In this document: positions 11,820-31,002 of the stretch, in pieces
Position numbering within the stretch: position 1 is the stretch's first letter
Layout of the letters: each line of letters starts with the position of its first letter
NCBI GenBank assembly: GCA_029210585.1
Contig: JARGFP010000006.1
Location: 88,322 to 152,321 of the forward strand
Direction: 5' to 3'
DNA length: 64,000 nucleotides
Origin: Bacteroidales bacterium
Lineage (GTDB): Bacteria; Bacteroidota; Bacteroidia; Bacteroidales; GCA-2748055
Made by a program: the position numbers and the translations under genes
Notes under the pieces: generated by a model
What the model saw: only the letters and a program-made list of their open reading frames with translations
The model's database searches: none
Told to the model about the DNA's origin: nothing

Positions 11820-11967
11820 GGTAGTTGTTGTTTCGTTCGAACCGACAATTTAACCAAAATCCTTTAGCCGGCAACGAAAATTGAACCTAAACAGCCCATT
11901 GGAATCATTCGTAAAATATCCTTACATTTATTCTTGTAAAAAGTCCGTTTCGAACACAACCACGATC

Positions 11968-12572: not shown

Positions 12573-12613
12573 AAATTCCACCATTTCGTTTCAATTTTTA
12601 ATTATTATTCCCC

Positions 12614-12621
12614 TACTTTTG
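12614..12621 (+). promoter_or_regulatory. Bacteroidota -7 promoter element (TAnnTTTG) for the aspartokinase
   Basis: TACTTTTG 25 nt upstream of the ATG at 12647. Confidence 0.6.
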
Positions 12622-12646
12622 CAAATTCAAATGCAAATAAAAAATT

Positions 12647-14026: not shown

Positions 14027-14244
14027 CCAGGTGCGCGACAACCAAAGGATGCCTGGCATGATTTCGTTGAACAGGGTGTTTGTGTGGAAAAATTTCCCTG
14101 CCGGGGGTTGATTTTACCCAAAATCATACCTTGCAGACCCCGTACTTCTGATGAGCAGGTATTATAACAGTGCTTTTCCTCTTATTGCATCTATCTGTAT
14201 TATAACCCTCTACACGGAATAAGCCAGACTTACTGCACTGCGGG

Positions 14245-14260
14245 CGGCACAGTCCTTGCA
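14245..14260 (+). promoter_or_regulatory. Putative sigma-54 (-24/-12) promoter
   Basis: CGGCACAGTCCTTGCA matches YGGCAC-N5-TTGCW with exact GG-N10-GC spacing, 27 nt before the ATG at 14288. Confidence 0.6.
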
Positions 14261-14287
14261 CATGTTCGAGCAATAAAAACAAATATT

Positions 14288-14755
14288 ATGAGAAACAAAA
14301 CCTTTCATTTTTTAGCCGCATTTTTAATGGTATTTGCAGTATCCTGTCAGAATACCGGAAAAGATTCCGACACTTCCAAAGAGGAGGAGAAATCACAGTC
14401 TATGGAGATCAATGCATCAGTGAAAGCAGAGCTTGAAGCCATTAAGGACAAGAGCAATGACCTGATGGAGCGGATCAGCAATGCAACGTATGCTGAGCGA
14501 CAAAATCTCCAGGACGATGTCGAAAATTTCGTGAGTGAAACCAGGGAGACGCTTACCGAAATGGAGACTGACTCAGAGCTTGAACAGGGTGTAGAGGATA
14601 TGGTGCACAATCTCAAAGAAAACACAAACATATTGGTTGAGGAAGCTAAGAAATTCAGCACCCAGACAGAAGAGCAGTGGGAAGAAGCCACTACCAACCT
14701 GGAAAATAAGATGAAGGAGATCAGTGGAGAGATCGAAGCATTTTTCAGCGACTGA
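14288..14755 (+). CDS. Acidic coiled-coil lipoprotein, hypothetical
   Basis: Lipobox FAVSC followed by an E/K-rich helical body. Confidence 0.75.
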   Translation: MRNKTFHFLAAFLMVFAVSCQNTGKDSDTSKEEEKSQSMEINASVKAELEAIKDKSNDLMERISNATYAERQNLQDDVENFVSETRETLTEMETDSELEQGVEDMVHNLKENTNILVEEAKKFSTQTEEQWEEATTNLENKMKEISGEIEAFFSD

Positions 14756-16070
14756 CAAGTACTCCTGCTTCCTGGGTTACACTTTTGTATACTTCCAACA
14801 TTTTATGAACCTGTCCCTCGACATGAAAGTGTCGTTCAACGCCTTCCCTGCCCTTACGGGCAATGTCATCAAGCTGTTGCGGATCTGACAGCATCTGCTT
14901 CAGGGCTGCAACCAGTGCTTCCGGAGTATTTGGCTCATACGTGATGCCACCCCCGGAAAGTGCCACGATCTCGGGAAAGGCTCCCAGGGCAGGCTGCACC
15001 ACGGGGACTCCGGAAGACATGGATTCCAGCAGGTAGATGCCAAATGCCTCCCCTTTCCTGACGGGAACAGATATGACTGCGACTTCGCTAAAGAAATCCT
15101 TCAGTCCCTGCGCTTCAAAATCGCCATGGTATTTCACCATATCGCTGAGGCCATGCTGATGGATCCTGCGTTTCTGTGAATGGATGAACTTCCGGTCGTC
15201 GCCCGTGGATCCCCCGGTAATATGCAGTTCAACATCATCAAAAGCCCTGTCCTGCTTGAGGAGGATAAACGCATCGACCAGGATGTCCATCCCCAGGTCG
15301 TGGCACATGCGGGATACGTAACCGATGTTCCTCTTTTTCTCCGAAGGCAGTCTGAATGAATAATTTTCCGGGTAGACACCGATATGGACGCGTTCCAGCC
15401 TTTCTTCCGGAAGATGCATCACCTTTTTCATCTCTTCCGCATACCAGCTGCTTACAGCAATGAATTTAGTAATATGCTCACCACGTTTTGACATCAGGTC
15501 CCAGACCATTTTACGGGAGGAAGGTTGCATCACATCCACCCACTGGTCTTCATCCTGAAGGGAACAGATCACCGGTACCCCGATCTTTTCACGGAGACGC
15601 AGGGCAAGGCCCACGAGCAAGGCATTGGAAAGATGGATCACATCGGGCTTACAGTGTTCTGCGATCCAGTCCACCATCTTGTCAAGTTCCGCTTTCTGTT
15701 GTCCCTCTTCTCCGAGCAACATGGACACGGTCATCTCCTCGAGCCCGGCAGCACGGGTTGAGCCGGCGAACCTGGAAGCCAGCTTCAGCATTGGCTTCGC
15801 ATTCAGCATCCTGTCCAGCCATGCAGGGGCTTTCCTGAACAGAGGGAACTGTTGCTTCAGGTAAATACTGATAGCCCCGTAGAAGACAGGTATCTCGCCG
15901 GTCAGGTCATGTTCATCGGCAAAGAGTGGCAGGTACATGGGGATTTTGGTCACCTGGTGGTCGGAAGCCCTCAGGGCCTCGACAAATTTACTGTCGCGCA
16001 GGCAATTGCCACAGTAGAAGCTTCCGCCGGAACCTGGTATGATCTGTATAATTCTCATTGCTCTTGACAT
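14745..16070 (-). CDS. Glycosyltransferase family 4 (GT-B) with N-terminal CxxC
   Basis: EAFGIYLLESMSSGVPVV (Ex7E) GT4 motif; N-terminal GSGGSFYCGNCLRD. Confidence 0.88.
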   Translation of the reverse strand: MSRAMRIIQIIPGSGGSFYCGNCLRDSKFVEALRASDHQVTKIPMYLPLFADEHDLTGEIPVFYGAISIYLKQQFPLFRKAPAWLDRMLNAKPMLKLASRFAGSTRAAGLEEMTVSMLLGEEGQQKAELDKMVDWIAEHCKPDVIHLSNALLVGLALRLREKIGVPVICSLQDEDQWVDVMQPSSRKMVWDLMSKRGEHITKFIAVSSWYAEEMKKVMHLPEERLERVHIGVYPENYSFRLPSEKKRNIGYVSRMCHDLGMDILVDAFILLKQDRAFDDVELHITGGSTGDDRKFIHSQKRRIHQHGLSDMVKYHGDFEAQGLKDFFSEVAVISVPVRKGEAFGIYLLESMSSGVPVVQPALGAFPEIVALSGGGITYEPNTPEALVAALKQMLSDPQQLDDIARKGREGVERHFHVEGQVHKMLEVYKSVTQEAGVLVSR

Positions 16071-17215
16071 TACTTTTTACCAAAACAATAAATCCTGCCG
16101 TCCTGTGCTCCTGCGATGATGTACCCGTCAATCACAGCCGGGTTACCAAATACCGCACTGCCCAGCTCATAGGTCCACCTGGTTTTTCCGTCCGATGCAT
16201 TCAGAAGCATGAGGTCGCCGCGCATGGTGGCCACCAGCAGCAACTGGTTCAGCAATACCGGTGATGCATCCACACGACCGAGTGTATTCACGCTCCAGCG
16301 CAGATCCCCATTTTCCCGGTTGAAGCAATAGACGTATTTATCGCGGTTCCCAATATACACGCTTTTCTCTGACAGTGAAGGAGATGCAATAAATGGCAAA
16401 TCCGCTTCCGGGTTTTTATAACTCCACAGTTCCCTGCCTTCCCGGATATCCAGGCAAGTGAATTTCCCGTCGTAATCACCCACGTATGTGATCCAGTCAT
16501 CGACAGCCACCGATCCGGCCACGTAGGTAGCCACGGGCTGCCGTTTCTTCAGTGATCCGTCGCGAACCATCACCTGGTGCAACAATCCATCGCACCCCCC
16601 GAAAACGGCCACTCCCTCGTATACCGCAGGGGTGCCGTTAATAAAATTATCGGCCTCATATTTCCAGAGACCTTCCCCGGTGGAAGCGTCAATACCGTGC
16701 AGAAAATAATCATAGCTTCCGATCAACAGCACACCCTCATCGCCGGACCCGGTCGTATTGCCGTTCCAGTAATTGGGTGCACCCATGATCTGTCCCTCGG
16801 TAGCATAGGTCCACAGGGTCCTGCCGGTCTGCAACTCAATAGCAAATACTTTTCCATCGAGGTTCCCGATATAGGCAACGCCATTCTTAATCAATGCTGC
16901 AGATTCGATACCGTTACCGGTATTGATTTTCCATTTCATTTTACCTTCCAGGGTGATGCCATATACATTTCCATCCACCGACCCTGCCACGATGATCCCT
17001 TCGCTTACTACCGGTGAAGCCTTGATGGCATCGCCGGTTTTAAAACTCCAGAGCAGCTCAGGTTGCGCAGGAATATTTGCCCCGGAGGTTCCTGTCAGCT
17101 GCGCGTCACCCCTGAAATTGGTCCACTCCGACTGTGCCGAAAGATTGAACAATACAGCCGGGGACAAGGCCAACAAGACGCTCAGCACCAAAAAGAAATG
17201 AAACTGCTTTCGCAT
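16070..17215 (-). CDS. PQQ-binding-like (BamB-like) beta-propeller protein
   Basis: Signal peptide, WTNFRG, and repeated xGxxxW blades (TGRTLW, TGEGLW, GRELW, GDLRW). Start is uncertain (17215 or 17275). Confidence 0.85.
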   Translation of the reverse strand: MRKQFHFFLVLSVLLALSPAVLFNLSAQSEWTNFRGDAQLTGTSGANIPAQPELLWSFKTGDAIKASPVVSEGIIVAGSVDGNVYGITLEGKMKWKINTGNGIESAALIKNGVAYIGNLDGKVFAIELQTGRTLWTYATEGQIMGAPNYWNGNTTGSGDEGVLLIGSYDYFLHGIDASTGEGLWKYEADNFINGTPAVYEGVAVFGGCDGLLHQVMVRDGSLKKRQPVATYVAGSVAVDDWITYVGDYDGKFTCLDIREGRELWSYKNPEADLPFIASPSLSEKSVYIGNRDKYVYCFNRENGDLRWSVNTLGRVDASPVLLNQLLLVATMRGDLMLLNASDGKTRWTYELGSAVFGNPAVIDGYIIAGAQDGRIYCFGKK

Positions 17216-17319
17216 TGGAATTTCACTCCCCGGGTTGCTTACAATTGAATTGGTCCTGACTTGATTCTTCCTCATTCAATGTCATTAATATTAACTCATT
17301 CCTGTTTCCTTTATTTATA

Positions 17320-18957
17320 CTACCTGTTCGTCAGTGCGCCTGTAGGGCACTCTTCAACCACCTGCAGGGCCACCTTTTCCAGCCCGTTCTCCAGTGCCTC
17401 CCCGAAAGGAACCCCAACCACTACATCAAATCCCCTGCCAATAAAGCTCATACCGAATCTCTCCCTGTGTTCCTCTGTTATACGGACACAGATTCCGCAT
17501 TTTATACATTTATTGGGTTCATATATTACAAATATATTTCTGTTCTGTTCACTTGCTTTCAGAATACTTCCCGAACCACCTCCGTTCCCAGCCGGCAGAC
17601 TTTCCTTCATCTTTGGGGATCCAAAATGCCTTTTGCGGACCAGCCGCCGGTCTTCCGACCAATATCTTTTCTGACTGGCCTTGTATTCATCGGACAATAA
17701 GCGCAGTTTACAATCGATGATTTCCCTGCAATCGCAATGCATACATCTTGCCGCCTCCTGCATTACCTCCTCCTTTGTAAAGCCTTTCGACGGGGCGGCC
17801 GGTTCCAGGCGGATGCCTTCCACCGATTCTTTCAAATATTCCGGAAACTCCTCCGGCAGCAATTTTCCAAACCTGGAGTTGAACAGGAACGGTTCTCCTG
17901 TCACCACTTCTCCCTGCAGGTACTGATCGATGCTGAACGCTGCCTCCTTCCCCTGTCCAAGTGTACGTATGGCCAGTTTGGAATTCCGGACGGCACTTCC
18001 GGCGGCAAAGATCTTTTCATGGGCGGTTGAATAACTGCTTTTACCGGCCGCGATCCCCTTGTCGGTCATTTCCAGTCCCCATGTCTCTACACCGGTTTCA
18101 CCGCTTCCGGTTGCCACCAGCACGGCATCAAACTTCCTGCATATCTCCCTGAAATGCTCCGGGTCCACATACGTATCAGGATACATCCAGGCCCCCATTT
18201 CCCTGATGCGCCCGATCTCATACTCCAATACATGTTCGGGCAAAACACCACGCTTTACTTCTGTCCAGAGGCTGCCTCCCGGCTGTCGGCCCCTGAAATA
18301 CACATCACACTGGTAGCCACGCAGCTGCAGGTAATATGCTGCGGCAAGACCGGCTGGTCCGGCGCCGATGATGGCCACTTTTGTTCCGTTGGATGGTGCC
18401 TTCTCCGGCAGGTAGTTATGTGCTGCATCCATGTCGTGATCCCCGGCATAGCGCTTCAGCAGGCAAATGGATACAGCAGAATCGATCGTCTTGCGCCTGC
18501 AGGCTCCTTCACAGGGTGCAGGACAAATCCTCCCGAATACGGCAGGCAGTGCAATATCGCGTTTGACCACCTCCAGGGCGGCCTCAAAGTTACCTTCTGC
18601 CAGCAACCGGTTCATCAGGGGAATGTCCATGTGCGCCGGACAGGTCACCTGGCATGGCGCCTCGCAATCGCCTGTATGTTCGCTCAGCAGCAGTTCAAGC
18701 GCTGTTTTCCGGGATTCTTCTATCTCCTCATCCCGCGTGATAATGTCCATTCCTTCCACCGTTTTCACCGAGCAGGAAGGAAAGAGCTTCCCGCTCTTAT
18801 TGTCCTTGACCATACAGATCATGCACGATGTAAAATGTGGTTTCCCGTCCCTGTAGCACATGGAAGGCACATCGAATCCTTTCATCCGCGCGGCAACCAT
18901 CACGGTAATCCCTTCAGGCACACGTACATCTTCGTTATTTATCTTCAGCTTCAGCAT
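17320..18957 (-). CDS. HydA/NuoG N-terminal Fe-S plus GltD-like oxidoreductase subunit lacking the NAD(P)H-binding domain
   Basis: 2Fe-2S (SMC...SCMIC...PSC), HxGDCEAPCQVTCP, GRICPAPCEGAC, GAGPAGL, RCMHCDC, CIKCGIC...CPTGAL. Confidence 0.82.
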   Translation of the reverse strand: MLKLKINNEDVRVPEGITVMVAARMKGFDVPSMCYRDGKPHFTSCMICMVKDNKSGKLFPSCSVKTVEGMDIITRDEEIEESRKTALELLLSEHTGDCEAPCQVTCPAHMDIPLMNRLLAEGNFEAALEVVKRDIALPAVFGRICPAPCEGACRRKTIDSAVSICLLKRYAGDHDMDAAHNYLPEKAPSNGTKVAIIGAGPAGLAAAYYLQLRGYQCDVYFRGRQPGGSLWTEVKRGVLPEHVLEYEIGRIREMGAWMYPDTYVDPEHFREICRKFDAVLVATGSGETGVETWGLEMTDKGIAAGKSSYSTAHEKIFAAGSAVRNSKLAIRTLGQGKEAAFSIDQYLQGEVVTGEPFLFNSRFGKLLPEEFPEYLKESVEGIRLEPAAPSKGFTKEEVMQEAARCMHCDCREIIDCKLRLLSDEYKASQKRYWSEDRRLVRKRHFGSPKMKESLPAGNGGGSGSILKASEQNRNIFVIYEPNKCIKCGICVRITEEHRERFGMSFIGRGFDVVVGVPFGEALENGLEKVALQVVEECPTGALTNR

Positions 18958-19044
18958 TTGGTTCCTTTTGTCAACATTCCGGTTATCAACTCCCGGCTGC
19001 TGTTCATCACAATTACAGCCGTAAAAAAACAGCAGACCTGGGGG

Positions 19045-21402
19045 TCATATCACGATCACCGCATCTTCAGGGCAAACCTGCCGGCAACCGTCGCATTTGA
19101 TGCATAATTCCAGGTTGATCTCGTGTTTTTCATGGGGTGCAAAGGGTATGGCATTCACCGGGCAATCCTGCGCGCACAGGGTACACCCGATACAATCATC
19201 TGTGATTTCGTAATGGATCAGCTCCTTGCATTTTCCCGTGGGGCAGGTACCATTGATGTGTGCTTCGTATTCATCCCTGAAAAATGCAAGTGTTGTTTTA
19301 ATCGGGTTCGGAGCAGTCTTGCCCAGTCCGCACAGGCTTCCCTTCGCGGTCCATTCTGCCAGGTTCTCGAGTTCATCCAGGTCTTTCATCGTCCCTTTTC
19401 CTTCGGTGATCTTCACAAGGATCTCCAGCATTCGCTTGGTGCCGATCCTGCAAAATGTACATTTACCGCACGACTCATTCTGGGTGAACGATAGAAAATA
19501 TTTTGCAATGTCGACCATGCAATCGGTATCATCCAGCACCACCATGCCCCCTGAACCCATCATGGCCCCTACCCCGGTCAGCGATTCAAAATCGATAGGT
19601 GTATCAGCCAGGCGTGCAGGAATGCATCCTCCTGAAGGACCGCCGATCTGGATCGCCTTGAACGTTCTGCCGTTGGCAACCCCGCCGCCAATCTCCTCCA
19701 CTACTTCACGGATGGTAATTCCCATAGGAACTTCGATCAATCCGCCCCTGGCCACTTTCCCTGCCAGGGCAAATACCTTGGTACCCTTTGAATGCTCGGT
19801 GCCCACACTATTGAATGAATTGGAACTGTATCGCAGGATATAAGCGATCTGCGCAAATGTCTCCGTATTATTGACAAGTGTTGGTTTTTCCCATAGTCCG
19901 CTTACCGCGGGAAAGGGCGGCCGCATCCGCGGAAACCCGCGTTTCCCTTCGATGGAGGCAATGAGGGCTGTTTCCTCGCCGCACACAAACGCACCTGCAC
20001 CCTGGTAGATCCGCAGATCAAAACTGAAACCGGAATCAAGGATGTTCTTCCCCAGGTAACCATGTTCATAGCACCTGTCCAACGCCTCCTGTATCCTGCT
20101 GACGGCCAGCGGATATTCAGCGCGAATATAGAGAATCCCTTCATCCGATCCGGTACAATACCCGGCAACGATGATGCCTTCAATGATTCTGTAGGGATAG
20201 GATTCGAGCAACATCCGGTCCATGAAGGCACCGGGATCCCCTTCATCGCCATTGCATATCACATATTTCTTTGGTCCCTTCTGGTCGGCCACCATCTGCC
20301 ATTTGGTTGCAGTCGGGAAACCGGCACCTCCTTTCCCGCGGATTCCGCTCTCCCTGAGCTCGTCGATGATCTTCTGCGGCGCTTTTCCAAGGCTCTTTTT
20401 GAAGGCCAGGAACCCCTGCCGTTCCTTGTATTCTTCAATATCCACGGGATTGATCACCCCGCGGTATTCCGTAGCTACCGGCACCTGCCTGTCGAGAAAT
20501 GCAGCAACGTGTTTCTCCCTGACATTCAATGCATACCGATCCACACCCGACCATTTTCCGTCATCCACCACATTCTCAAGTGCATTGACGACCTGTCCCC
20601 GCATGCGTTTCCAGAAACCGGCCGGCTGGAAATGCTGGCGAACAATCTGGTCCACATCCACCGACTTCACTTTTGAATAGAGGATCGGCTCTCCTTCTGC
20701 CGGGACCACTTCCACCAGTGGTACCTGGTGACACATGCCCACGCATCCCACGTGTTTCAGCTTGACGTTCAGGCTGTTCCTTTCGATTGTATTTTTAACT
20801 GCATCCCGGATCTCATCGCTTCCGCTGGCCACGCAGCAGGAACCCAGCCCGATGCGGATCTCACCCTGGATCTCTTCCCCGCTGGATTTCCTGAAACGCT
20901 GTTTTACACCCCCGTCCTTCACTTTCTCAAAATCGCTGAGCACTCCGCCAACGGCAGCGGATGCGACATGGCCATAGGTAATATTATCGATCTGAACAAC
21001 CGGGGCAAGGGTACAACAGCCCAGGCAGTTCACCTTTTCCACTGTATATTTCCCGTCTGCAGAAGTGTCGGTCCCTCCTTCCATGCCCAGTTTCCGCCGA
21101 AGGGCGTCATACACCTGCTCCGCACCTTTCACATGACACGCCGTGCCTACGCATACCTTCACCATGTGGTCTCCTGCAGGTGAGAACCTGAACTGGGAAT
21201 AGAAGCTGGCTACGCCGGTGATCATCGCAGGGGTGATGTCCGACACCTCGCACACCCTGCGCAGCGCCTCTTCGGGCAGGTAGTTGTACTTTGCCTGGAT
21301 CGCTTGCAGCACGGGAATTACAGCCGACGGGTCGTGCCCGAGCTTTTCAACAATCTGTTCTATTTCCTTGTAGTGTTCTTCCATCTTCGCTACTTCACCC
21401 AT
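19045..21402 (-). CDS. Fused HydC-HydB (NuoE-NuoF-like) FMN/Fe-S NADH oxidoreductase with C-terminal 2x[4Fe-4S]
   Basis: CVGTACH...CLGCC, a second TRX-like Fe-S domain, GKGGAGFPT, NGDEGDPGAFMDR, CGEETALIASIEG, GGPSGG, ESCGKCTFCRIG, and two CxxCxxCxxxCP motifs. Confidence 0.92.
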   Translation of the reverse strand: MGEVAKMEEHYKEIEQIVEKLGHDPSAVIPVLQAIQAKYNYLPEEALRRVCEVSDITPAMITGVASFYSQFRFSPAGDHMVKVCVGTACHVKGAEQVYDALRRKLGMEGGTDTSADGKYTVEKVNCLGCCTLAPVVQIDNITYGHVASAAVGGVLSDFEKVKDGGVKQRFRKSSGEEIQGEIRIGLGSCCVASGSDEIRDAVKNTIERNSLNVKLKHVGCVGMCHQVPLVEVVPAEGEPILYSKVKSVDVDQIVRQHFQPAGFWKRMRGQVVNALENVVDDGKWSGVDRYALNVREKHVAAFLDRQVPVATEYRGVINPVDIEEYKERQGFLAFKKSLGKAPQKIIDELRESGIRGKGGAGFPTATKWQMVADQKGPKKYVICNGDEGDPGAFMDRMLLESYPYRIIEGIIVAGYCTGSDEGILYIRAEYPLAVSRIQEALDRCYEHGYLGKNILDSGFSFDLRIYQGAGAFVCGEETALIASIEGKRGFPRMRPPFPAVSGLWEKPTLVNNTETFAQIAYILRYSSNSFNSVGTEHSKGTKVFALAGKVARGGLIEVPMGITIREVVEEIGGGVANGRTFKAIQIGGPSGGCIPARLADTPIDFESLTGVGAMMGSGGMVVLDDTDCMVDIAKYFLSFTQNESCGKCTFCRIGTKRMLEILVKITEGKGTMKDLDELENLAEWTAKGSLCGLGKTAPNPIKTTLAFFRDEYEAHINGTCPTGKCKELIHYEITDDCIGCTLCAQDCPVNAIPFAPHEKHEINLELCIKCDGCRQVCPEDAVIVI

Positions 21403-21403
21403 G

Positions 21404-23263: not shown

Positions 23264-23309
23264 CCTTTTTAGTACTTAATTTGCGCTCGCATAAGCCCGG
23301 GTTACCCGT

Positions 23310-24620
23310 TCATTGCTTCGCTTTTACTATCCCTGATTTACGATCTCCGGACTGCTCTCCTACAGGGCAATAATCCATGCACCTGCCACAACTGAAGCAA
23401 TCACGCTTATGTGGTATATAATCTTTCCTTTTCCTGAGCACGAACTGGTTCATGAGCATGATCCCCAGCACCAGGCCCAGGTATCCGCCCAGGTACCAGC
23501 CACCGGTCCTGAATTTCGACCTGATCACCGACGCCTCTTCCACCAGCTGGTCCATGGACTTTCCTGATTCGAGGAATGCCTGGATATCCAGGTTTTCCGT
23601 ATCCTCCCGGAGTTCGGGCTGGGCAATCAGCAATTCAGAAAGGTACACATCGGGATGTGCCTTGGAGAGGAATACGTGTGCCTTCGACACTGCAAAGCCG
23701 CCTGCAAAGATCCACACCGGCACCAGCAAACCAAAGATCACATAGTTCCTGAGGTTCTTACGGACTGTCGATTCGGTGCGCACCTTTTCATCGATGGGGG
23801 CTTCGATGGCATCAAAAGGACAGGAATTTGCGCACAGTTTGCAGTTGATACACTCCGAAGGGGTGATGGTGATGTGTTTTTTTGAGAAATGGGACATAAA
23901 GCCCAGCAGCACACTGTAGGGGCAGAAAACCCTGCAGTAGGGACGTGCAAAAAACATTCCGAGCACAAGAAAAGCAATGCCGAGGCCTATCATCAGGTAG
24001 GGACCGTCTGTCCTGAAAATCCCGACAAAGGGGTCGTACCGGCAAATGATAAAGTCGGTCCCGGTTGCTGCAAACAGTATCGCGAGCCCGATATAAATAT
24101 GGGGGATAAATGACAAGGTTTTCCTGACCCAGCTGGAGACAGAGATGGGCCTGATCACCACCAGGTCCTGTATGGCCCCGAGCGGACAGGCAGCGGCGCA
24201 GAAGGTCCGACCGTAAAAAAGGGCAAACACCAGTGGCAGCAAAAAGAACAGCAACACTGTTATGGATATCTTATAGCCCGGATCGAAGAGCGCCAGCGTT
24301 ACATTCTGGATGGACCCGATGGGACAGATGCAGCCGTTCCGGTAGAAGCCGAAATAAAGCAGGGTAAAAACAGATAACCAGAGGACTCCCCGACGGGAAC
24401 GTTTTTTGAGAATCAGCCAGGTGGCCAGGGCCATTACCCCGAACAGGACGATGACATCGAACACTTCCATGCCTGCGGTACGCGGTTCCGGTGTGGTTGT
24501 ATTTGGCTGTTCATATCCGCTCTCAAATTCCGGTTTCGGAAACCGTTGCTGGGCATTCAATGCGAGAAACGCAAACACCATCAGTACCAGGAAGCCCAAT
24601 CTGTAATTTTTCCTTATCAT
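23310..24620 (-). CDS. Membrane polyferredoxin (NapH/MauN-like 4Fe-4S binding protein)
   Basis: Multiple TMs; GCICPIG, FCAAACPLG and YCRVFCPY (CxxxCP); CINCKLCANSCP and CFSCGRCMDYCP. Confidence 0.85.
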   Translation of the reverse strand: MIRKNYRLGFLVLMVFAFLALNAQQRFPKPEFESGYEQPNTTTPEPRTAGMEVFDVIVLFGVMALATWLILKKRSRRGVLWLSVFTLLYFGFYRNGCICPIGSIQNVTLALFDPGYKISITVLLFFLLPLVFALFYGRTFCAAACPLGAIQDLVVIRPISVSSWVRKTLSFIPHIYIGLAILFAATGTDFIICRYDPFVGIFRTDGPYLMIGLGIAFLVLGMFFARPYCRVFCPYSVLLGFMSHFSKKHITITPSECINCKLCANSCPFDAIEAPIDEKVRTESTVRKNLRNYVIFGLLVPVWIFAGGFAVSKAHVFLSKAHPDVYLSELLIAQPELREDTENLDIQAFLESGKSMDQLVEEASVIRSKFRTGGWYLGGYLGLVLGIMLMNQFVLRKRKDYIPHKRDCFSCGRCMDYCPVGEQSGDRKSGIVKAKQ

Positions 24621-25204
24621 GCGCCTGCTTCTCCCGATTCGTTAGCTGTAAAATCTCCTTTGATCATATAAGGTTCACTGGCCGGCACCCTGCTGATGGC
24701 ATCTGACGGACAAACGCGTGCAATGCTGCATTCGTTGCAGTTGACACAGATGTCATGCCTGATCTGCAGGTGCAACGATCCGTTGCCAAATGCACTGCAC
24801 CCTTTCACGCACTTGGCACACCCGATACACAGTTCTTCATCGATGATATACTCGAAATAGGGTTCTTCGATGAATTTTCGTTCAATAGCCGCAGCAGGAC
24901 AAAGCTGTTTCTCTGCTCCTGTATCAAGGTCCGTGACACCAGGTTTGAAATAGCCGCCACAAAGGTCGCAGTAACCGCAGATGTCGTATGCATGCACACA
25001 TTTCACAGCCGATGGAGACAGTACACAATCGGTGGCACATCTTCCGCACTGGGTACATTTAAACGGGTCGATCTGCCACAGGTATTTCTCACTGCCGGCA
25101 TTTACCGCTGCCGCCACGCCCACACCTGCCAGAGACAGGCCGAGTGTGAACCGGGCGCCCCTGTTGATAAATTCCCGCCTGTTGTATTCCTTATCCCTTG
25201 CCAT
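24617..25204 (-). CDS. Multi-[4Fe-4S] ferredoxin with twin-arginine-like leader (NapG-like)
   Basis: NRREFIN plus a hydrophobic stretch; CTQCGRC, CGYCDLC, CIGCAKC, CVNCNEC...CP. Confidence 0.85.
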   Translation of the reverse strand: MARDKEYNRREFINRGARFTLGLSLAGVGVAAAVNAGSEKYLWQIDPFKCTQCGRCATDCVLSPSAVKCVHAYDICGYCDLCGGYFKPGVTDLDTGAEKQLCPAAAIERKFIEEPYFEYIIDEELCIGCAKCVKGCSAFGNGSLHLQIRHDICVNCNECSIARVCPSDAISRVPASEPYMIKGDFTANESGEAGA

Positions 25205-25397
25205 TACCCTTTGCTTTTAGTGCGCCCGGAAGGGTGCAGTTATTCAGTTTACCGCAGTCATTGCAGAATTTATTGAGTGTGCAGTCTGACTGTACTGAGA
25301 CTTTGTCGCGGTAGACAAAAACGCCTACCATTGCTGCCATCACAGAAAGGATGGATATCCTTGCAAATGCTGCAAAAAACGCTCTCCTGTTCATCAT
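25191..25397 (-). CDS. Small Cys-rich protein with twin-arginine-like leader
   Basis: MMNRRAFF, a TM, then C-x5-C-x2-C-x5-C. Lies in-operon, overlapping or abutting its neighbours. Confidence 0.7.
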   Translation of the reverse strand: MMNRRAFFAAFARISILSVMAAMVGVFVYRDKVSVQSDCTLNKFCNDCGKLNNCTLPGALKAKGNGKG

Positions 25398-25400
25398 TTC

Positions 25401-26363
25401 TTACCTGTTTTTTTCAAAAATCCTGATAACGTTCCTGTCGAAATCCAGCGCGTAAACAACACCGTTTTCATCCACAACCACTTCGGGGGCCTGTCCTTCC
25501 TCCAGGAATTTGCGGGGTGGTGCCACCACTGTTTTCAGTTCACCTGAGCTGTCATATATCTTGATCCGCACCATATGTTTCTCGCTGGTCACAAATGAGC
25601 CATCCTCCATCACTGCAATATGTGCCGGATTGCAACAGCCGCTGAATCCTTCAATGTTCATGGAGCCCGCTGTCCAGAACCCCCTTAACTGGCCTTCGTT
25701 TGTGTAATTCTCGAGGGCATGCCGCCCCGGATTCACCACCCACAGTTCGTCGTAGCTGTTCACCACCAGGTCGAAACTGGCGCTGGGTACGATAAACCCA
25801 TGTCCGGCGCTGCTTTCCGCCTTTCCCTCGAACTGACCCATCAATTCACCTTCTAAATTATATCTCAGTACGCGCCTGTTTCCGGCATCTGCCACAAACA
25901 GGAATTCACCGGCAGATGCCAGCGATGTAAATACGCATTTGCTGCCCGGGGAATCCCATTCCGCTAGGAAGGTACCCTCCCGGCTGTATTTTTTTATATG
26001 ATCCTCGAAACCGATAAAGACCGCCTGGTCATTGACCTCAATACATGTGGGAAGGCCCTGGATTTCTGTTTTCATCTGCTGCACCCCGGCCAATGAAATC
26101 ACCTGCAGGACCTGTTCACCAGCTATCCATAGCAGGTTATCATACAAATCCAGCGCCCCGGGCTTGTAATCGCGTACCGGAAAATTTTTGGTTTCCCGGT
26201 AGCCGATCAGCGAGGTATCCACCTCCTTGTATTCATCAAACTGATATTCATACGGATTGTCCCCCAGCCGGTCCGGACGTTTCGCTGAATAGTCAAGCAC
26301 GATCACCACGATAATGGCAGCGATAATCAGTACGACGATGAATGATAACGATTTATTCTTCAT
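25401..26363 (-). CDS. Membrane-anchored NHL-repeat beta-propeller protein
   Basis: N-terminal TM; LFVADAGNRRVLRY NHL repeat; GFSGCCNPAHIA. Confidence 0.8.
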   Translation of the reverse strand: MKNKSLSFIVVLIIAAIIVVIVLDYSAKRPDRLGDNPYEYQFDEYKEVDTSLIGYRETKNFPVRDYKPGALDLYDNLLWIAGEQVLQVISLAGVQQMKTEIQGLPTCIEVNDQAVFIGFEDHIKKYSREGTFLAEWDSPGSKCVFTSLASAGEFLFVADAGNRRVLRYNLEGELMGQFEGKAESSAGHGFIVPSASFDLVVNSYDELWVVNPGRHALENYTNEGQLRGFWTAGSMNIEGFSGCCNPAHIAVMEDGSFVTSEKHMVRIKIYDSSGELKTVVAPPRKFLEEGQAPEVVVDENGVVYALDFDRNVIRIFEKNR

Positions 26364-26366
26364 ATT

Positions 26367-27803
26367 CTATCTGTTTCGGCTTGCAGCCATGTCCATGCAG
26401 ATCATTGTTTCCGAATCCCGCAGCACCATGTACCCGTCTGCGACAGCAATGGGAGCCCAGGCATCGGCGCCATCCTCGATAACGCGGTACCGGTCGAGTT
26501 CGATGTACCTGTTGACGGAAGGACGTGCGATCACCAGTGTGCCGTCATCATCCAGGATAAAGAGTTTTTCATCAGCAATCATATAAGGTCCAAGACCGAA
26601 CCGGACCGTTTGTCCGCTTTCCCATACGATTTCAGTAAAATCATCCGGATGCACGCAGACCAGTTCGTTCCTGAGCGGGCCGGCGTCCTTGGGCAGGATA
26701 CCCAGCAGGTGTCCCTGGAACACAACGGGAGTTTGCTGTTCAGAAGCCAGTCCTTCTTTCGGACTGTACTCCCTGATCACCTCGGCCGCAAATCCATCGC
26801 CGCTGCGCGACAACTGCAGCACCATGCTGCCGGCACCATATCCAGCTGTGAGAAATACTGTGCCGTCGGGGAGACAAACAGGTGACGGGGCCACCACATT
26901 GTGCTTCCAGTCGGGAGCTGTCCAGAGGATCTTCCCTGCATCACGCCCCTCCGCCGCAATTCCGCAGGCTCCGCCAATAGCGCTGTACACGTACATTTTC
27001 ACACCATCAAGTTCGTAGGGCATAATGGAGGAGTGCGACATGCCCCACTGATGCTCATTGGGCGTTTGCCAGGCAAACTCCCCGGTCTTACAATCCACTG
27101 CCACGAACAGGTTTTTACCGCCCGTTGCAATGATCGCAAGGTCGTTGTCTACCAGCGGACATTGCCCTGTGTACCAGAAAGGCACCTCCGTTTCATAATC
27201 CTGCTCCACGTTCAGTCCCCACCTGAAGTCACCATCCTCGCGGTCGACACACATTACGTGGCCGCGGGGTCCGATCGTGACAATATAGTCCTCAGTGACG
27301 GCAGGAACGGTTCGTGACATCCCATGGTTCCGTTTGATCGGGATTTTATACCATCGCCTCCAGAGCTCTGTTCCCTCAACCAGGTCGAAGCAACGCAGCA
27401 TATCAGCACGCAGTTCCTCATCGTAATCCAACACATACACCTTGCCCTCATAAATGGCGGCGCCACCATGCCCTTCCCCCAGGTCAACCTCCCACATTAT
27501 CTCCGGTCCTGTCTCAGGAAATGCGTCGATAAGGGCCACCTCTGACCGTGAAATATTATCGAAATGTTCTCCCCTGAAACGGGGCCAGGTACCGGTGAGG
27601 TCAGAACCCTTGCGCTCAAACCGCTCGAAGAACTCCCCGATCTCAATATCCAGGCTGACAGCTACCCCTTCCCCGCGGTTGTCCATACCGGGCACACTCA
27701 CCACGAGGTCCTTCACAGGATCCTTTGTGATCCACCATGCGATGGAAAATACACCTGCCAATGCCAGCAGGTAGGGAATCAGTATGTGCGGTTTTAATCT
27801 CAA
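26367..27803 (-). CDS. PQQ-like beta-propeller protein, N-terminal TM
   Basis: WPRFRG, WEVDLGEGHGGAAI, and C-terminal WAPIAVADG. Confidence 0.85.
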   Translation of the reverse strand: MRLKPHILIPYLLALAGVFSIAWWITKDPVKDLVVSVPGMDNRGEGVAVSLDIEIGEFFERFERKGSDLTGTWPRFRGEHFDNISRSEVALIDAFPETGPEIMWEVDLGEGHGGAAIYEGKVYVLDYDEELRADMLRCFDLVEGTELWRRWYKIPIKRNHGMSRTVPAVTEDYIVTIGPRGHVMCVDREDGDFRWGLNVEQDYETEVPFWYTGQCPLVDNDLAIIATGGKNLFVAVDCKTGEFAWQTPNEHQWGMSHSSIMPYELDGVKMYVYSAIGGACGIAAEGRDAGKILWTAPDWKHNVVAPSPVCLPDGTVFLTAGYGAGSMVLQLSRSGDGFAAEVIREYSPKEGLASEQQTPVVFQGHLLGILPKDAGPLRNELVCVHPDDFTEIVWESGQTVRFGLGPYMIADEKLFILDDDGTLVIARPSVNRYIELDRYRVIEDGADAWAPIAVADGYMVLRDSETMICMDMAASRNR

Positions 27804-27806
27804 GAC

Positions 27807-29054
27807 CTACCGTTCTTTAATATCATATACAAGCAATACATCATGGTGGCGCAGGAACAGTTTATCGTCGTAGATGGAAGGATGCGCCCATCGCGGGCCC
27901 CTGCCATCACTTACCTGGAAGGAACTCACAACATTGAATCCTTCCGGGGTTGCCTCCACGAGCCCCACATGGCCCTGTTTTTCCTCAAAGACATACAGCA
28001 TGCCATCTGCATAGATCATAGCGCCCTTGTTGCGCCATTCCTCTTCGTACATCACTTCACCGGTATCCCAGTCGAGACACACCCAGTTGCCCATACCATT
28101 GCTGATCCAGTTAGATCCGTAGATATACCCGTCCAGCAGGACCAGTCCTCCATGGTGATTGTCAAGCACGTCGTTGGTCCACTTCACCTTTGCGGAACGG
28201 ACATCATCGGAAAGTGCTACCATGAGTGCTTTGTCATCGTAGCCGCTTGAAACGAAAATCTCCCCGTTGTGGTACAGTGGGGTATTGGTACTGTTGCGCC
28301 TTCCTTTTTCAGTATAATCAGTTACCAGGTCAAGTTTCCAGAAAATTTTTCCGGTAGCCGGATCAATCCCTGCCAGGTTACGGGAAGTGGTTGCCACAAG
28401 TAACTGGTTGCCATTGTGTTCGATCATCAGGGGAGAAACATAGGAGCGGACATCCCCGGTGGGTTCAGACTTCCAGATCACCGATCCATCCTCCTTGTCC
28501 AGTGCTACCATCACGGTCTCTTCCCCGACCGGTGAGGAAATCACTGCGTCTTCAGTAAGCAATACAGATTCGGCCATTCCCCACCTGTGAAAGCCGGCAT
28601 CGAATTCATCGTGCGTGTTCCTCGACCAGAGGATCTGCCCGGTTTTGGCATCGATACAGTTCACGGTACCCATGGCACCGGTGATATAGATCCTTCCGTT
28701 CTCGATGGCAGGGGTGTTCCTTGTTTCCTGGAAGGACTCCATCCATGGACGTCCATACACGGTTTCCCAGTACACAGAACCGTCAAGGCCCACTGCAGTG
28801 ATCACCTCCAGCGTATCCCTTCTTCCTGTCACATAAATGGTTCCATCGTACATGACAGGTGTGGAATATCCTCCGCCCAGGCCCTCTTTTTTCAGGAGCA
28901 GGTCAGGACCGTTTTCCGGCCATTCCTTCAACAATCCTGTTGCAGGATATTTACCGTCCCGTTCAGGCCCCCTCCATTGTGCATCCTGTGCATAAATAAC
29001 AGTGGTATGTGTTCCCAGTACCAGGATAATCAGTATATATAGATTTCTGTGCAT
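27807..29054 (-). CDS. PQQ-like beta-propeller protein (secreted)
   Basis: Signal peptide, QWRGPERDG, GYSTP, and C-terminal WAHPSIYDDKLFLR. Confidence 0.85.
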   Translation of the reverse strand: MHRNLYILIILVLGTHTTVIYAQDAQWRGPERDGKYPATGLLKEWPENGPDLLLKKEGLGGGYSTPVMYDGTIYVTGRRDTLEVITAVGLDGSVYWETVYGRPWMESFQETRNTPAIENGRIYITGAMGTVNCIDAKTGQILWSRNTHDEFDAGFHRWGMAESVLLTEDAVISSPVGEETVMVALDKEDGSVIWKSEPTGDVRSYVSPLMIEHNGNQLLVATTSRNLAGIDPATGKIFWKLDLVTDYTEKGRRNSTNTPLYHNGEIFVSSGYDDKALMVALSDDVRSAKVKWTNDVLDNHHGGLVLLDGYIYGSNWISNGMGNWVCLDWDTGEVMYEEEWRNKGAMIYADGMLYVFEEKQGHVGLVEATPEGFNVVSSFQVSDGRGPRWAHPSIYDDKLFLRHHDVLLVYDIKER

Positions 29055-29061
29055 GGTTTCT

Positions 29062-29253
29062 TTATTTATCTGTTCTTTTGTTTTCAGAGATCTGTTGACT
29101 GTCTGTAGCACGCATTTCACCCTCCTGTCCCCTGAGATTGTATACCATCAGTGCATCACCGTGCCTGACGTACAGCCTGCCATTAAAGATGGCGGGGCGT
29201 GCCCTGAAAGGACCTCGTCCTTCCTCTATTCTGGATGAGCTGCCGATTTGCAT
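29062..29253 (-). pseudogene. C-terminal remnant of a further PQQ-like propeller paralog
   Basis: SSRIEEGRGPFRARPAIFNGRLYVRHGDALMVYNL aligns by eye with the last blade of both flanking genes. Confidence 0.65.
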
Positions 29254-29303
29254 ATCCTCTTCATCTGGTCATTCATCCTGTCGTTTTCAACCAAACATGT
29301 CGC

Positions 29304-30506
29304 TCATTTCACCTGATAGGCGATCAGCGCCTTTCCATGACGCAGGTAGAGTACACCCTCATGGATGACAGGATGTGCCCAGTGCTGTTCTGACCCAATG
29401 GTCACCCGTGTCTTGCCTGCAAGGTCGAACTTCACAGGAGTTGCCCTTACCAGCACAAGTTCACCCATGTCGGAATAACCGAACAATTTTCCATCAGCCG
29501 AAATAGTGACACCCTTGCCAACCTCCATACTGGTCCATTCATCTTTTCCTGTTTGCCAATTGATACAACGCCATTCGCGGCTGTTATCACCTGAACCATA
29601 TATATATCCGTCAACCAGGACCGCACCTCCCATCCTGCTGTCAAATGGGGTTGTCCAGGCCAGCGCCACACTGGTTCCGTCTTCATTCAGCATCAGTTTC
29701 CCGCCTCCCTGGCCGTAGCCACTGAAAAAGAACAGGTCGCCATCGTAGTAAATCGGGGTGTTGGCGTGTACCGACCACTCATTGGGGTGTTTGTGTGTCC
29801 AGAGCACCTTGCCGGTTGTTGCATCAATACCGAGCAGGTGTGATTCGGTATGTGTAGAGAGTATTTTTCTTCCGTTATGGGTAAACAACAGCGGGGTACA
29901 GTAAGCCGAAAGCTCTCCTTTCCCGGGGCAGCTCCACAGCAGTTTTCCATTGCTGCGATCGATTGCCACCACACTGTTTTTCCCGCCAGGTGTAGCGTAA
30001 ATAATATTCCCGTCCACTACCGGAGTTTCATTGTATCCCCATTTGATGACCGAACCGCCAAGGTCCTTTACCATATCCACCTCCCATATTTTCTCACCAG
30101 TGCTTTCCATCATGCACATCAACTTACCGTAACCACTCACGAAGTAGATCCTGTCACCAACGATCACGGGTGTGCCCCTTGAACCGTAGAAGCTCTCCGT
30201 ATATTCCGGGCCATAGGCTTTTTTATACACCAGGTTTCCTTCCATATCCAGTTTAAAGAGGTACCCGGTTCCGTCTGTCATGCCTGCTGTATAGATATAA
30301 TTGCCGGCAACAACCGGTGAGGAATGGCCCTGTCCCAGTTCTTCGAATGTCCACAGAACCGCTGGTCCGGCGTCGGGCCAGGCATCCAGTAATCCGGATG
30401 CCGGATAAAGGCCATCAGTGCCATTTCTCCAGGCTGTTGCTTCCTGTGCATTGCTGTTCAGGGCAAGAAGGGTAAGAAAAAATGCAGCTAATAATTTGAT
30501 TTTCAT
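29304..30506 (-). CDS. PQQ-like beta-propeller protein (secreted), first gene of the operon
   Basis: Signal peptide MKIKLLAAFF..., AWRNG, GHSSPVV, and C-terminal WAHPVIHEGVLYLRHG. Confidence 0.85.
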   Translation of the reverse strand: MKIKLLAAFFLTLLALNSNAQEATAWRNGTDGLYPASGLLDAWPDAGPAVLWTFEELGQGHSSPVVAGNYIYTAGMTDGTGYLFKLDMEGNLVYKKAYGPEYTESFYGSRGTPVIVGDRIYFVSGYGKLMCMMESTGEKIWEVDMVKDLGGSVIKWGYNETPVVDGNIIYATPGGKNSVVAIDRSNGKLLWSCPGKGELSAYCTPLLFTHNGRKILSTHTESHLLGIDATTGKVLWTHKHPNEWSVHANTPIYYDGDLFFFSGYGQGGGKLMLNEDGTSVALAWTTPFDSRMGGAVLVDGYIYGSGDNSREWRCINWQTGKDEWTSMEVGKGVTISADGKLFGYSDMGELVLVRATPVKFDLAGKTRVTIGSEQHWAHPVIHEGVLYLRHGKALIAYQVK

Positions 30507-30581
30507 TGTTATATCCTTTAATTGTTCATATTTGTCGATGCGGTTCACAGTTTCGCCTGGAACCACCTTTTTTAAAACTTC

Positions 30582-30589
30582 CAAATTTA
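30582..30589 (-). promoter_or_regulatory. Bacteroidota -7 element for the propeller/Fe-S operon
   Basis: Minus-strand TAAATTTG about 75 nt upstream of the 30506 start. Confidence 0.5.
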
Positions 30590-30777
30590 TCATTTAAGTG
30601 CGCTGCTCAGAGGCATTTGGACCATTTTAGATATAATTCAGAATCATTCTGTATAAATCAGTAACCAGGTAAAAAAAAACAGTGATGCGGGGAGCACGCG
30701 GGTGAGGACAAACTTGCGATGATCTTTAAAAGCGAAGGGTTCCGACAGGCAAGAACAGGACTGCGATGCACGCCGAA

Positions 30778-30897
30778 GAGGCGGAAGGCAGCGGACAGGT
30801 GAAGGAAGGACTTCCAGGTGCCTTAAAGCAGTAGCTGCTGACATGTGGAAACAGACCCGCAACAGACCGGGGAGGCGGAAGGCAGCGGACAGGTGAA
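30778..30897. repeat. 26-bp perfect direct repeat, 2 copies
   Basis: GAGGCGGAAGGCAGCGGACAGGTGAA at 30778-30803 and 30872-30897. Confidence 0.9.
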
Positions 30898-31002
30898 AAA
30901 ACATTCAGCAGAGGCAACCTGACATGCAGGATAAGATGCGCGAGAACCTGTGTATTCAATTCAGCAGAATTTTATAACTTACACACTCTAAAACAAAACG
31001 TC

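Follow-up and report, generated by a model that had tools for sequence, protein, structure and literature searches.

A gene set shared by at least two phyla that may encode an envelope redox machine with a Bfu-type core and exported beta-propellers

Overview of the Gene Set

Bfu-type enzymes are central to the anaerobic energy economy. We describe here a locus in which one Bfu core occurs with a defined and strongly conserved set of partners. The locus lies in a stretch of 64,000 nucleotides (contig JARGFP010000006.1, positions 88,322 to 152,321 of the forward strand; assembly GCA_029210585.1) from a Bacteroidales genome of the GTDB group GCA-2748055; this whole stretch is called the window, and coordinates without a locus name are positions in it. 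Twelve intact genes, all on the minus strand, and a 45-codon remnant (14745-30593) encode a flavoenzyme core, iron-sulfur proteins, a series of exported beta-propellers, and a GT4 glycosyltransferase. Many genera, from at least two phyla, share this combination of genes, and its arrangement is far beyond chance. We give an even chance to the reading that the locus encodes one multi-subunit envelope redox machine. This reading is suggested by the conserved gene content and order, the interleaving of the modules, the export and cofactor signals of the proteins, and the finding of no other catalytic subunit, and also by an ATP-binding cassette (ABC) ATPase and an FtsX permease linked to the cluster (39 and 28 loci), by the Nfn/Stn-type enzymes as closest solved relatives of the core, and by the precedent of type 2/3 Bfu enzymes.

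Full-text searches of the literature (main text without supplements) gave no description of this gene combination, in agreement with an earlier reading of the same DNA from its letters alone (the original prediction), which had known of no characterised system with this composition. The words “propeller” and “polyferredoxin” are absent from the text of Schut et al. (2022), and according to that paper 18 of 57 Bfu clades are uncharacterised or have no known third partner.

Conservation and Distribution

The following sources have been used for collecting homologous loci: a pattern scan of GTDB species genomes, which found at least 599 stretches, 550 of them encoding a relative, and of which the best 80 of the 550 were kept, and a metagenome scan seeded with 11 distant members of the NHL family, which gave 80 more, resulting in 160 loci. 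The complete core was present in 38 of the 40 species-genome loci of at least 20 kb. When loci with at least three core genes were compared, 78 of 79 from species genomes and 51 of 57 from metagenomes were colinear. Among 40 genomes of close relatives, 19 had a match to the NapH-like membrane protein at E<=1e-140 (within the genus 10 of 12, among the family's other genera 7 of 12, and among the order's other families 2 of 16), and gene order was kept in 12 of the 12 relatives' loci that were cut out, as far as the contigs extend. The original prediction had named a lack of conservation in other genomes as something that would refute it, and this refutation clearly fails.

In 400 genomes drawn evenly from the phylum, no match to the 436-aa NapH-like protein was found at E<=1e-40; within this sample of Bacteroidota, therefore, the system belongs to part of one order, a result that has no bearing on other phyla. 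Cultured organisms with the complete colinear cluster are Draconibacterium orientale DSM 25947 and Mariniphaga sediminis SY21 (both Prolixibacteraceae; loci L085 and L090), and many uncultured sediment Bacteroidales also carry the gene set. The NHL family comprises 673 clusters of 50% identity at E<=1e-30, and the GC content of the loci ranges from 33 to 74%. Close NHL relatives of a 73%-GC locus are named by NCBI as Phycisphaerae, Planctomycetota and, in one case, Armatimonadota. Acidobacteriota is a lead from the Atlas.

Flanking and inserted open reading frames of the 160 loci were clustered, and recurrent families and selected unmatched frames were run through Pfam. Among the core-matched genes and recurrent neighbours, no H-cluster, NiFe, Mo/W-pterin, carbon monoxide dehydrogenase (CODH), or cytochrome/haem subunit was found, and napA, nosZ and mauB were likewise found neither among the genes matched to window proteins nor among the recurrent flanking families. 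The original prediction had noted the lack of a recognised catalytic subunit in the window alone, and this lack extends to the homologous clusters within the same scope. The recurrent neighbours were the ABC pair, lineage-specific regulators, glycoside hydrolase family 2 (GH2) genes, IS200 genes, and genes for 23S rRNA intervening-sequence proteins.

Genes of the last two kinds are found in or beside the cluster with its order unbroken (intervening-sequence protein genes in 9 loci and IS200-type transposase genes in 8; e.g., L093:16061-16525 and L041:153-638). In L174 a NitT/TauT-type ABC transporter, consisting of a permease, an ATPase (32% identity to the window ATPase) and an NMT1-like binding protein, is inserted between the NapH-like and transmembrane-propeller genes (L174:12960-15542).

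Gene Order in the Window

The original prediction had read twelve co-directional minus-strand genes plus a remnant, and all the open reading frames were found where it had placed them; the domain calls of Pfam and NCBIfam also agree with its naming of the operon proteins. Its bounds were too narrow: the gene set is as described, but orthologues of the ABC ATPase and FtsX permease lie apart from it at 6564-7241 and 3319-6567, and its gene list had missed both this MacB-type pair and the variable accessory genes. Neighbouring genes overlap by 1-74 nt or are separated by 3-87 nt, with the sole exception of a 183-nt gap between the propeller genes P1 and P2. The modules are interleaved, since the gene for a propeller with three transmembrane (TM) helices sits between the NapH-like gene and the fused Bfu gene, overlapping the latter, and another propeller gene (prop401) sits between BfuA and GT4.

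The P1/P2 gap contains the remnant of a fourth upstream propeller gene, its C-terminal 45 codons (about 29131-29265, minus strand), which was identified by tblastn with an additional propeller paralogue of the same-genus relative L011; the 45 aa are 60% identical to the C-terminus of that protein (E 1e-15). An intact form of this paralogue occurs in many relatives.

The Cytoplasmic Bfu Core

The fused BfuC-BfuB protein (810 aa; 19045-21477, minus strand) is of the NuoE-NuoF/HydC-HydB type according to Pfam and PDB profile matches. Its thioredoxin-like [2Fe-2S] domain of the BfuC type (PF01257, 4.6e-51, residues 39-183) is fused to BfuB, in which Pfam detects Complex1_51K (375-545), SLBB (569-617), NADH_4Fe-4S (656-740) and Fer4 (758-807); a second 2Fe-2S-like domain and a C-terminal 2x[4Fe-4S] domain are also present. 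In an alignment of 62 sequences the cluster cysteines, the GGAGFP flavin motif, and the second 2Fe-2S-like domain are kept, the BfuC cluster cysteines C109, C114, C151 and C155 are invariant, and all eight cysteines of the C-terminal ferredoxin domain stand at 94-98%. Schut et al. (2022) collected BfuB proteins by four InterPro domains, and all four are present in the 810-aa protein. The HydBC/BfuBC-type core that had been claimed is supported by BfuB architecture, BfuC domain and conserved cofactor cysteines. The best PDB matches are 9n5u_B (NfnB, 5.7e-207), 8oh5_B (3.7e-199) and 9bov_B (8.4e-194); 9BOV and 9BP5 are NfnABC of C. saccharolyticus, 9N5U is the “Tsi” NfnABC, and 8OH5 is StnABC.

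The BfuA-like subunit (545 aa; 17320-18957, minus strand), which was assigned by PDB alignments to NfnA/StnC, contains a 2Fe-2S domain, a GltD-type iron-sulfur and flavin adenine dinucleotide (FAD) domain, and two further four-cysteine motifs. It aligns to NfnA/StnC in three pieces and ends near residue 671 of 1172-1178 (9bov_A, 8oh5_C, 9n5u_A). The HMMER alignments omit residues 290-420 of 9bov_A and 300-445 of 8oh5_C (130-146 residues), a segment which, from the domain order, we take to be the site of the NADP(H)-binding Rossmann insertion in GltD-type proteins, and Pyr_redox_2 matches the subunit at profile positions 2-36 of 291 only. Both the GltD-like NADP(H)-binding domain and the formate dehydrogenase (Fdh)-like C-terminal half are absent, and because of this the subunit cannot be an NADPH-linked transhydrogenase. 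The orthologues are 514-974 aa long with a median of 518, and in such a short family the loss of the insert is a family trait; the absence of an NADP-binding domain, which the original prediction had noticed in the GltD-like subunit, therefore holds. None of 54 orthologues keeps the Asp of the flavin GD motif, which has become Ser in 35 of them and Asn in the other 19, so that the subunit may bind FAD differently or no longer at all. Judged from its sequence, the core is a Bfu core whose ancestral third-substrate site has gone and whose BfuA derives from NfnA/StnC.

The BfuB part matches those of NfnABC and StnABC along its whole length, a BfuC-type 2Fe-2S domain is present as in these enzymes, and the third subunit aligns with NfnA/StnC in its 2Fe-2S and FAD domains, its GltD-type clusters and two later cluster motifs. 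Unlike these enzymes, BfuC and BfuB are fused here, the third subunit has neither the NADP(H) insert nor the Fdh-like half (NfnA/StnC have about 1170 aa) and carries Ser or Asn in its GD motif, and the core is embedded in a membrane and periplasmic gene set. An identity of the locus as an Nfn/Stn transhydrogenase was rejected, as both the GltD-like NADP(H) domain and the Fdh-like half are missing. Type 2/3 Bfu enzymes, in which extra subunits feed BfuA, are an accepted class in the Nfn/Stn structure papers. The locus resembles these multi-subunit and predicted membrane-bound enzymes, such as the Mbh-Bfu of Dehalococcoides and the WOR-Bfu “plug to a nanowire”, in its combination of a BfuABC core with additional iron-sulfur subunits, through which electrons pass in those enzymes and would pass here. 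The difference lies in the partners. Those of the type 2/3 enzymes covered by these sources are recognised enzymes (NiFe hydrogenase, tungsten oxidoreductase, pyruvate:ferredoxin oxidoreductase (PFOR), CODH), whereas the locus has a NapH-like membrane protein, ferredoxins that are exported, and propellers for which no catalytic cofactor is known.

The host genome is that of a fermenter and encodes PFOR, RnfC, and three separate HydA plus HydB sets. With PFOR and Rnf the host makes reduced ferredoxin, and with three canonical HydABC-type sets elsewhere in the genome the core of the locus is a fourth, dedicated Bfu core. The three HydA-type [FeFe]-hydrogenase genes each adjoin a NuoF/HydB-like gene (contigs C72, C39 and C116, outside the window).

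The Iron-Sulfur Conduit

Three consecutive genes encode the putative conduit. The membrane component is a NapH-like integral-membrane polyferredoxin of 436 aa (23310-24620, minus strand; Pfam Fer4_5 and Fer4 families) with a signal peptide and about seven TM helices. It has Cys pairs close to either face of the membrane as well as two CxxCxxCxxxCP motifs, and 15 of its cysteines are invariant (alignment A1). In the simplest topology three cysteines would lie at the outer face and four at the inner face, and both CxxCxxCxxxCP motifs would be cytoplasmic. JGI names its relatives “NosR/NirI family”. The RR-ferredoxin, a polyferredoxin of 195 aa with a twin-arginine translocation (Tat) signal (24617-25204, minus strand; Pfam Fer4 families), has a four-cluster architecture, and its RR pair and 17 of 17 cysteines are invariant in 77 sequences. 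The third component, a 68-aa protein (25191-25397, minus strand), has an R-R/K-x-F leader, one TM helix, and an invariant Cx5Cx2Cx5C (49 sequences; 30-sequence alignment A4), and matched no Pfam or NCBIfam family. The spacing of these cysteines resembles what we take to be that of the endonuclease III cluster loop, and the protein is probably a Tat-anchored mini iron-sulfur protein.

The original prediction had called this a NapGH-like conduit, and the architecture does resemble NapGH, but the NCBIfam scores are far below the curated cut-offs. The NapH-like protein scored 34.4 bits against 213.05 with TIGR02163 and 31.9 against 234 with NF007013, so that it does not belong to NapH/MauN/NosH as these families are curated, and the RR-ferredoxin scored 15.6 bits against 178.85 with mauM_napG (TIGR00397), though the Tat signal and four 4Fe-4S motifs are present. 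Two identities were rejected: that of a Nos, Nap or Mau pair, because of the low scores and the lack of a partner enzyme, and that of a haem-based conduit, because no CxxCH motif occurs in any of the 14 proteins (12 from the operon and the ABC pair). At G016:C49:6845-8095 (L017), in one relative, the NapH-like match lies within a 1074-aa open frame, and the tblastn piece has one stop codon; this frame may have arisen by read-through into, or fusion to, the TM-propeller gene, unless the assembly is at fault.

NapGH, NosGH and MauMN pairs serve periplasmic enzymes and normally draw on quinol, and among the enzymes served NosZ and the methylamine dehydrogenase heavy chain are beta-propellers. The locus shares with these pairs a multi-cluster ferredoxin with a Tat signal and a polytopic membrane protein with Cys-x3-Cys-Pro-type and cytoplasmic ferredoxin motifs. 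It differs in the signal peptide of its membrane protein, whose ferredoxin motifs are split by two additional TM helices, in the lack of NapA, NosZ and MauB, and in the presence of a cytoplasmic NADH/ferredoxin module instead of, or besides, quinol. The locus is also reminiscent of mau clusters, in which a propeller subunit, a small exported Cys-rich subunit with an RR leader, and the NapGH-like MauMN pair are found in one operon. The locus, by contrast, has no MauG-type haem enzyme and no CxxCH, and the propeller beside its small protein is a six-bladed NHL propeller. Identity of the 68-aa protein as a methylamine-dehydrogenase-like small subunit was rejected, because it contains no Trp and neither a tryptophan tryptophylquinone- nor a cysteine tryptophylquinone-type cofactor is possible.

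Propellers and the NHL Protein

P1 (29304-30593, minus strand; PQQ_2 9.8e-24) and P2 (27807-29120, minus strand; PQQ_2 6.9e-31) are exported beta-propellers of the PQQ_2/BamB-like type. The P1 frame reaches 30593, and its probable start is M29 near 30509; it has a signal peptide with cleavage before a conserved Gln, and orthologues occur in 53 loci. P2 likewise carries a signal peptide, and its HH and H motifs are conserved. The number of P1/P2-like genes varies from 0 to 6 per locus, and four to eight BamB-like propellers occur alongside the core. P3 (26367-27803, minus strand; PQQ_2 2.1e-19) is anchored by an N-terminal TM helix at residues 7-25 and has conserved Cys and His. It is the most conserved propeller, with 37% of positions at least 90% identical in 68 sequences and an identity of 41-58% in distant metagenome loci, and it is a candidate for the catalytic or hub subunit. 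The 3TM-propeller (619 aa; 21404-23263, minus strand; PQQ_2 7.4e-29) consists of a three-helix anchor (15-33, 84-102, 133-151), a low-complexity linker, and a PQQ_2 propeller, and has a conserved NHYGHSSS motif. The last propeller, prop401 (16070-17275, minus strand), is exported with a signal peptide and is of the Beta-prop_ACSF4/PQQ_2 type (Beta-prop_ACSF4 199.5 bits against a cut-off of 133).

The NHL protein (320 aa; 25401-26363, minus strand) has an N-terminal TM anchor. While the match of Pfam NHL to the single sequence was marginal (19.8 against 20), a profile of 71 sequences matched the NHL domains of TRIM2/3/71, Thin, Brat and PknD in the PDB with E values of 1.7e-18 to 3.4e-11, which assigns it to the six-bladed NHL propellers; all these PDB matches are non-enzymatic NHL domains. 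Cysteines C243 and C244 form an invariant vicinal pair (GCCNP), H215 is conserved at 100% and H188 at 99% (71 sequences), and the motif GCC[NSD]P occurs in 148 of the 150 best representatives of the family. Some NHL relatives carry Tat signals.

Two identities of the propellers were tried and rejected. Scores for PQQ-dependent dehydrogenases (TIGR03075) were 21-65 bits against a cut-off of 480, and those for BamB (TIGR03300) were 29-145 bits against 285.2 for all six propellers. PF01011 gave single short stretches above its cut-off in five of the six, and P3 was below it (17.4 against 26.7). PqqC was not detected in the 99%-complete host genome by a search that also detected it in none of 14 control genomes.

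GT4 and the Displaced ABC Pair

The cytoplasmic GT4 glycosyltransferase (14745-16070, minus strand; Pfam Glycos_transf_1 and Glyco_transf_4) has an N-terminal CxxC...H...H arrangement, in which C20, C23 and H54 are invariant and H38 is conserved at 97% (39 sequences), and there was no specific NCBIfam equivalog for it. An ABC ATPase gene lies directly 3' of GT4 on the same strand in 31 loci, followed by an FtsX permease gene in 20. Relatives of the window's own ATPase (6564-7241, minus strand; ABC_tran, PF00005 6.3e-34) and permease (1082 aa; 3319-6567, minus strand; PF02687 twice, 6.3e-21) make up the 39 and 28 loci given above. When 8 ATPases of other loci were used as queries, this ATPase was their best match in the genome, at 53-61% identity, while paralogues reached 37-44%. 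The permease has two FtsX domains, 10 predicted TM helices and two large periplasmic loops; MacB_PCD (PF12704, 8.7e-06) scores just under its cut-off (26.6 against 27), and the protein belongs to the MacB (type VII) class. Its orthologues include high-GC ones at 34-37% identity. Members of the type VII ABC class act mechanically on the periplasmic side instead of moving substrates through the membrane. The pair resembles MacB, LolCDE and YbbAP in having an ABC ATPase and an FtsX permease with a MacB-like periplasmic core domain, and differs from them in its single 1082-aa permease with two FtsX domains and 10 predicted TM helices and in its genetic tie to GT4 and a redox gene set.

In the window, the ABC pair is displaced from GT4 by 7.5 kb, which contain one 1511-aa gene and three plus-strand genes. 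The 1511-aa Laminin_G_3 (LamG)/BACON protein (7284-11819, minus strand), whose gene lies directly upstream of the ATPase gene on the same strand, was rejected as a member of the system, as relatives were found in 0 of 172 loci (L011-L182); it thus looks like an insertion specific to the lineage, which parts the ABC pair from the other genes of the system. The plus-strand genes (11881-14755) encode an MscS-like channel fragment, an aspartokinase with an ACT domain, and a 155-aa apolipoprotein-like helical protein, and an aspartokinase gene also adjoins GT4 in L011 (L026 is the same record). In the high-GC loci L143, L146 and L175, a prop401-GT4-ABC-FtsX block is found upstream of P3.

Proposed Mechanism and Alternatives

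Chances are equally balanced, in our view, that the overall machine is one in which an NADH/ferredoxin Bfu core feeds exported propellers. Gene composition, conservation, cofactor motifs, export signals and the lost NADP(H) site are observed; what we infer is how the subunits touch, which way electrons run, whether they bifurcate, where the active site lies and what the substrate is. The iron-sulfur conduit, through the NapH-like protein, would replace NADP(H) as the third partner of the core. Electrons of NADH and reduced ferredoxin would merge at the flavin/cluster site, pass through the NapH-like protein to the exported RR-ferredoxin and the four-Cys protein, and reach an NHL/P3 propeller complex at the outer face of the inner membrane. 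We consider outward electron flow the most likely direction. Such a machine would act as a confurcating sink for electrons and would resemble HydABC, except that a transmembrane wire takes the place of the H-cluster domain. The terminal chemistry may be thiol/disulfide- or metal-based at the NHL Cys-Cys/His site, and the substrate may be envelope-bound, e.g., a glycolipid or glycan made or presented by GT4 and the mechanotransducing ABC pair.

Several points weigh against this proposal. In the metagenome loci L106 and L156 the periplasmic block ends after the TM-propeller without Bfu genes next to it, and in L156 a restriction-modification system follows; together with the 7.5-kb displacement of the ABC pair, these breaks indicate that the modules can be separated. 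The NapG- and NapH-like scores are far under the curated family cut-offs, and to our knowledge electron passage across the membrane by a haem-free NapH-type protein is not established. FAD binding by the BfuA-like subunit may, from the GD-motif replacements, be altered or lost. Contacts between any two of the proteins are putative, and a catalytic site in NHL or P3 is suggested by conserved Cys and His only. Confurcation is worthwhile only if the acceptor lies near -400 mV, and one of this kind is not evident in the periplasm. Evidence of expression is also weak: only two RNA libraries, both of one sediment study, contain the stretch (shares of 0.06-0.07), and short contigs of relatives are found at 90% likeness in 24 and 22 of 30 bins, but none of these contigs bridges two genes by at least 31 letters and DNA carry-over is possible, so that they show neither transcription nor co-transcription.

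A core without bifurcation is unlikely. In that case the NuoEF-like fusion would only feed in electrons from NADH, like the NADH dehydrogenase part of complex I or of NAD-linked formate dehydrogenase, and the extra clusters and the BfuA-like subunit would be a plain wire. NuoF/NuoE models do match the fusion strongly (TIGR01959 461.7 bits, below its cut-off of 558.65), the loss of the NADP(H) site and the GD-motif change show that the ancestral three-substrate logic has been remodelled, and ferredoxin would be dispensable if the periplasmic acceptor had a higher potential. What speaks for bifurcation is the retention of the C-terminal 2x[4Fe-4S] domain with its eight cysteines, which binds ferredoxin in Nfn-Bfu according to the parts of the structure papers used here, the retention of the second 2Fe-2S-like domain and the BfuC cluster, and the fact that the closest solved relatives are all bifurcating enzymes. 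The same machine might instead run in reverse, with the propeller/NHL complex oxidising a low-potential periplasmic or extracellular donor, electrons flowing inward, and the core bifurcating to NAD+ and ferredoxin, as an uptake enzyme that builds membrane potential. Conservation and composition would fit this equally. Inward electrons from a periplasmic oxidation are electrogenic in a useful sense. Characterised Bfu enzymes (NfnABC, HydABC) are reversible, and Nfn runs from a mid-potential donor to NAD and ferredoxin. We nevertheless consider reversal quite unlikely, since a donor near -400 mV would be needed while the locus encodes no known site for low-potential oxidation, be it a hydrogenase, a formate dehydrogenase, CODH or another, and the hosts examined, with PFOR and three HydABC-type sets, look like fermenters needing sinks.

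It is very unlikely that the locus is a mosaic of separate units held together for regulation only, namely a flavoenzyme, a quinol-linked NapGH-type periplasmic enzyme with propellers, and a GT4/ABC unit for envelope biogenesis. The quinol habit of NapGH-type pairs would suit such a mosaic, and so would the mobility of the blocks, as seen in L143, L146 and L175, in the displaced ABC pair of the window, and in the ends of L106 and L156. However, all blocks share one neighbourhood across loci of 33-74% GC, their genes are interleaved and overlapping, and the BfuA-like subunit retains no substrate domain of its own.

It is possible, if somewhat doubtful, that the gene set represents a cross-phylum class of machine, in which a con- or bifurcating core would have a haem-free transmembrane iron-sulfur wire as its third “substrate”. 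This wire would end in the periplasm at an enzyme of several propellers, with a metal or a vicinal dithiol in its active site, which would act on an envelope glycolipid or an external acceptor delivered by GT4 and the ABC pair. If so, this would be the first flavin-based bifurcation coupled directly to periplasmic chemistry. If the proposed wiring of core, conduit and propellers is real, flavin-based bifurcation extends to the cell envelope, and a NapH/NosR-type protein gains a cytoplasmic electron partner, which bears on why cytoplasmic-side clusters persist. Two large uncharacterised families of exported propellers (GCCNP NHL and BamB-like PQQ_2) would gain a job, and a new sink for electrons might be open to abundant fermenters that degrade polysaccharides.

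Accessory and Neighbouring Genes

A promoter scan of the locus gave 13 promoter-like sites against 16.4 expected, and terminator-like matches were scattered inside genes. Nothing in positions 1-34000 of the window matched Rfam at E<=0.1, nor did anything in 7 loci reach the gathering score. In 22 loci (e.g., L038:1940-2602, on the opposite strand) the first propeller gene has as divergent neighbour a gene for a 220-aa protein, whose winged-helix match is weak, and genes for a LytTR response regulator and a histidine kinase lie upstream of the cluster in 6-7 loci; all of these are possible regulators.

In two cases only, L108 (2197-8406) and L174 (2073-8474; L171 looks identical), isoprenoid-type genes for a radical SAM protein, a DUF116-polyprenyl synthetase fusion, a prenyltransferase-like protein and a squalene-hopene-cyclase-like protein are found between the P1-type propellers and P3, and L108 additionally has a DGC-domain gene. 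The cyclase-like gene occurs alone beside the cluster in L073, L066 and L146, and the host genome of the window has no match to it at E<=1e-10. These genes give hints of an isoprenoid lipid partner in some lineages, not of a general feature.

Upstream of P1, an 86-aa open reading frame (30644-30904) was rejected as a member of the system, having no family match and no tblastn match in any locus. Beyond it, two plus-strand genes are divergent from the operon: an aldo/keto reductase gene (31003-31962), which is a neighbour within the genus only, and a gene for a DUF4139/DUF4140/CarboxypepD_reg protein (32348-34228).

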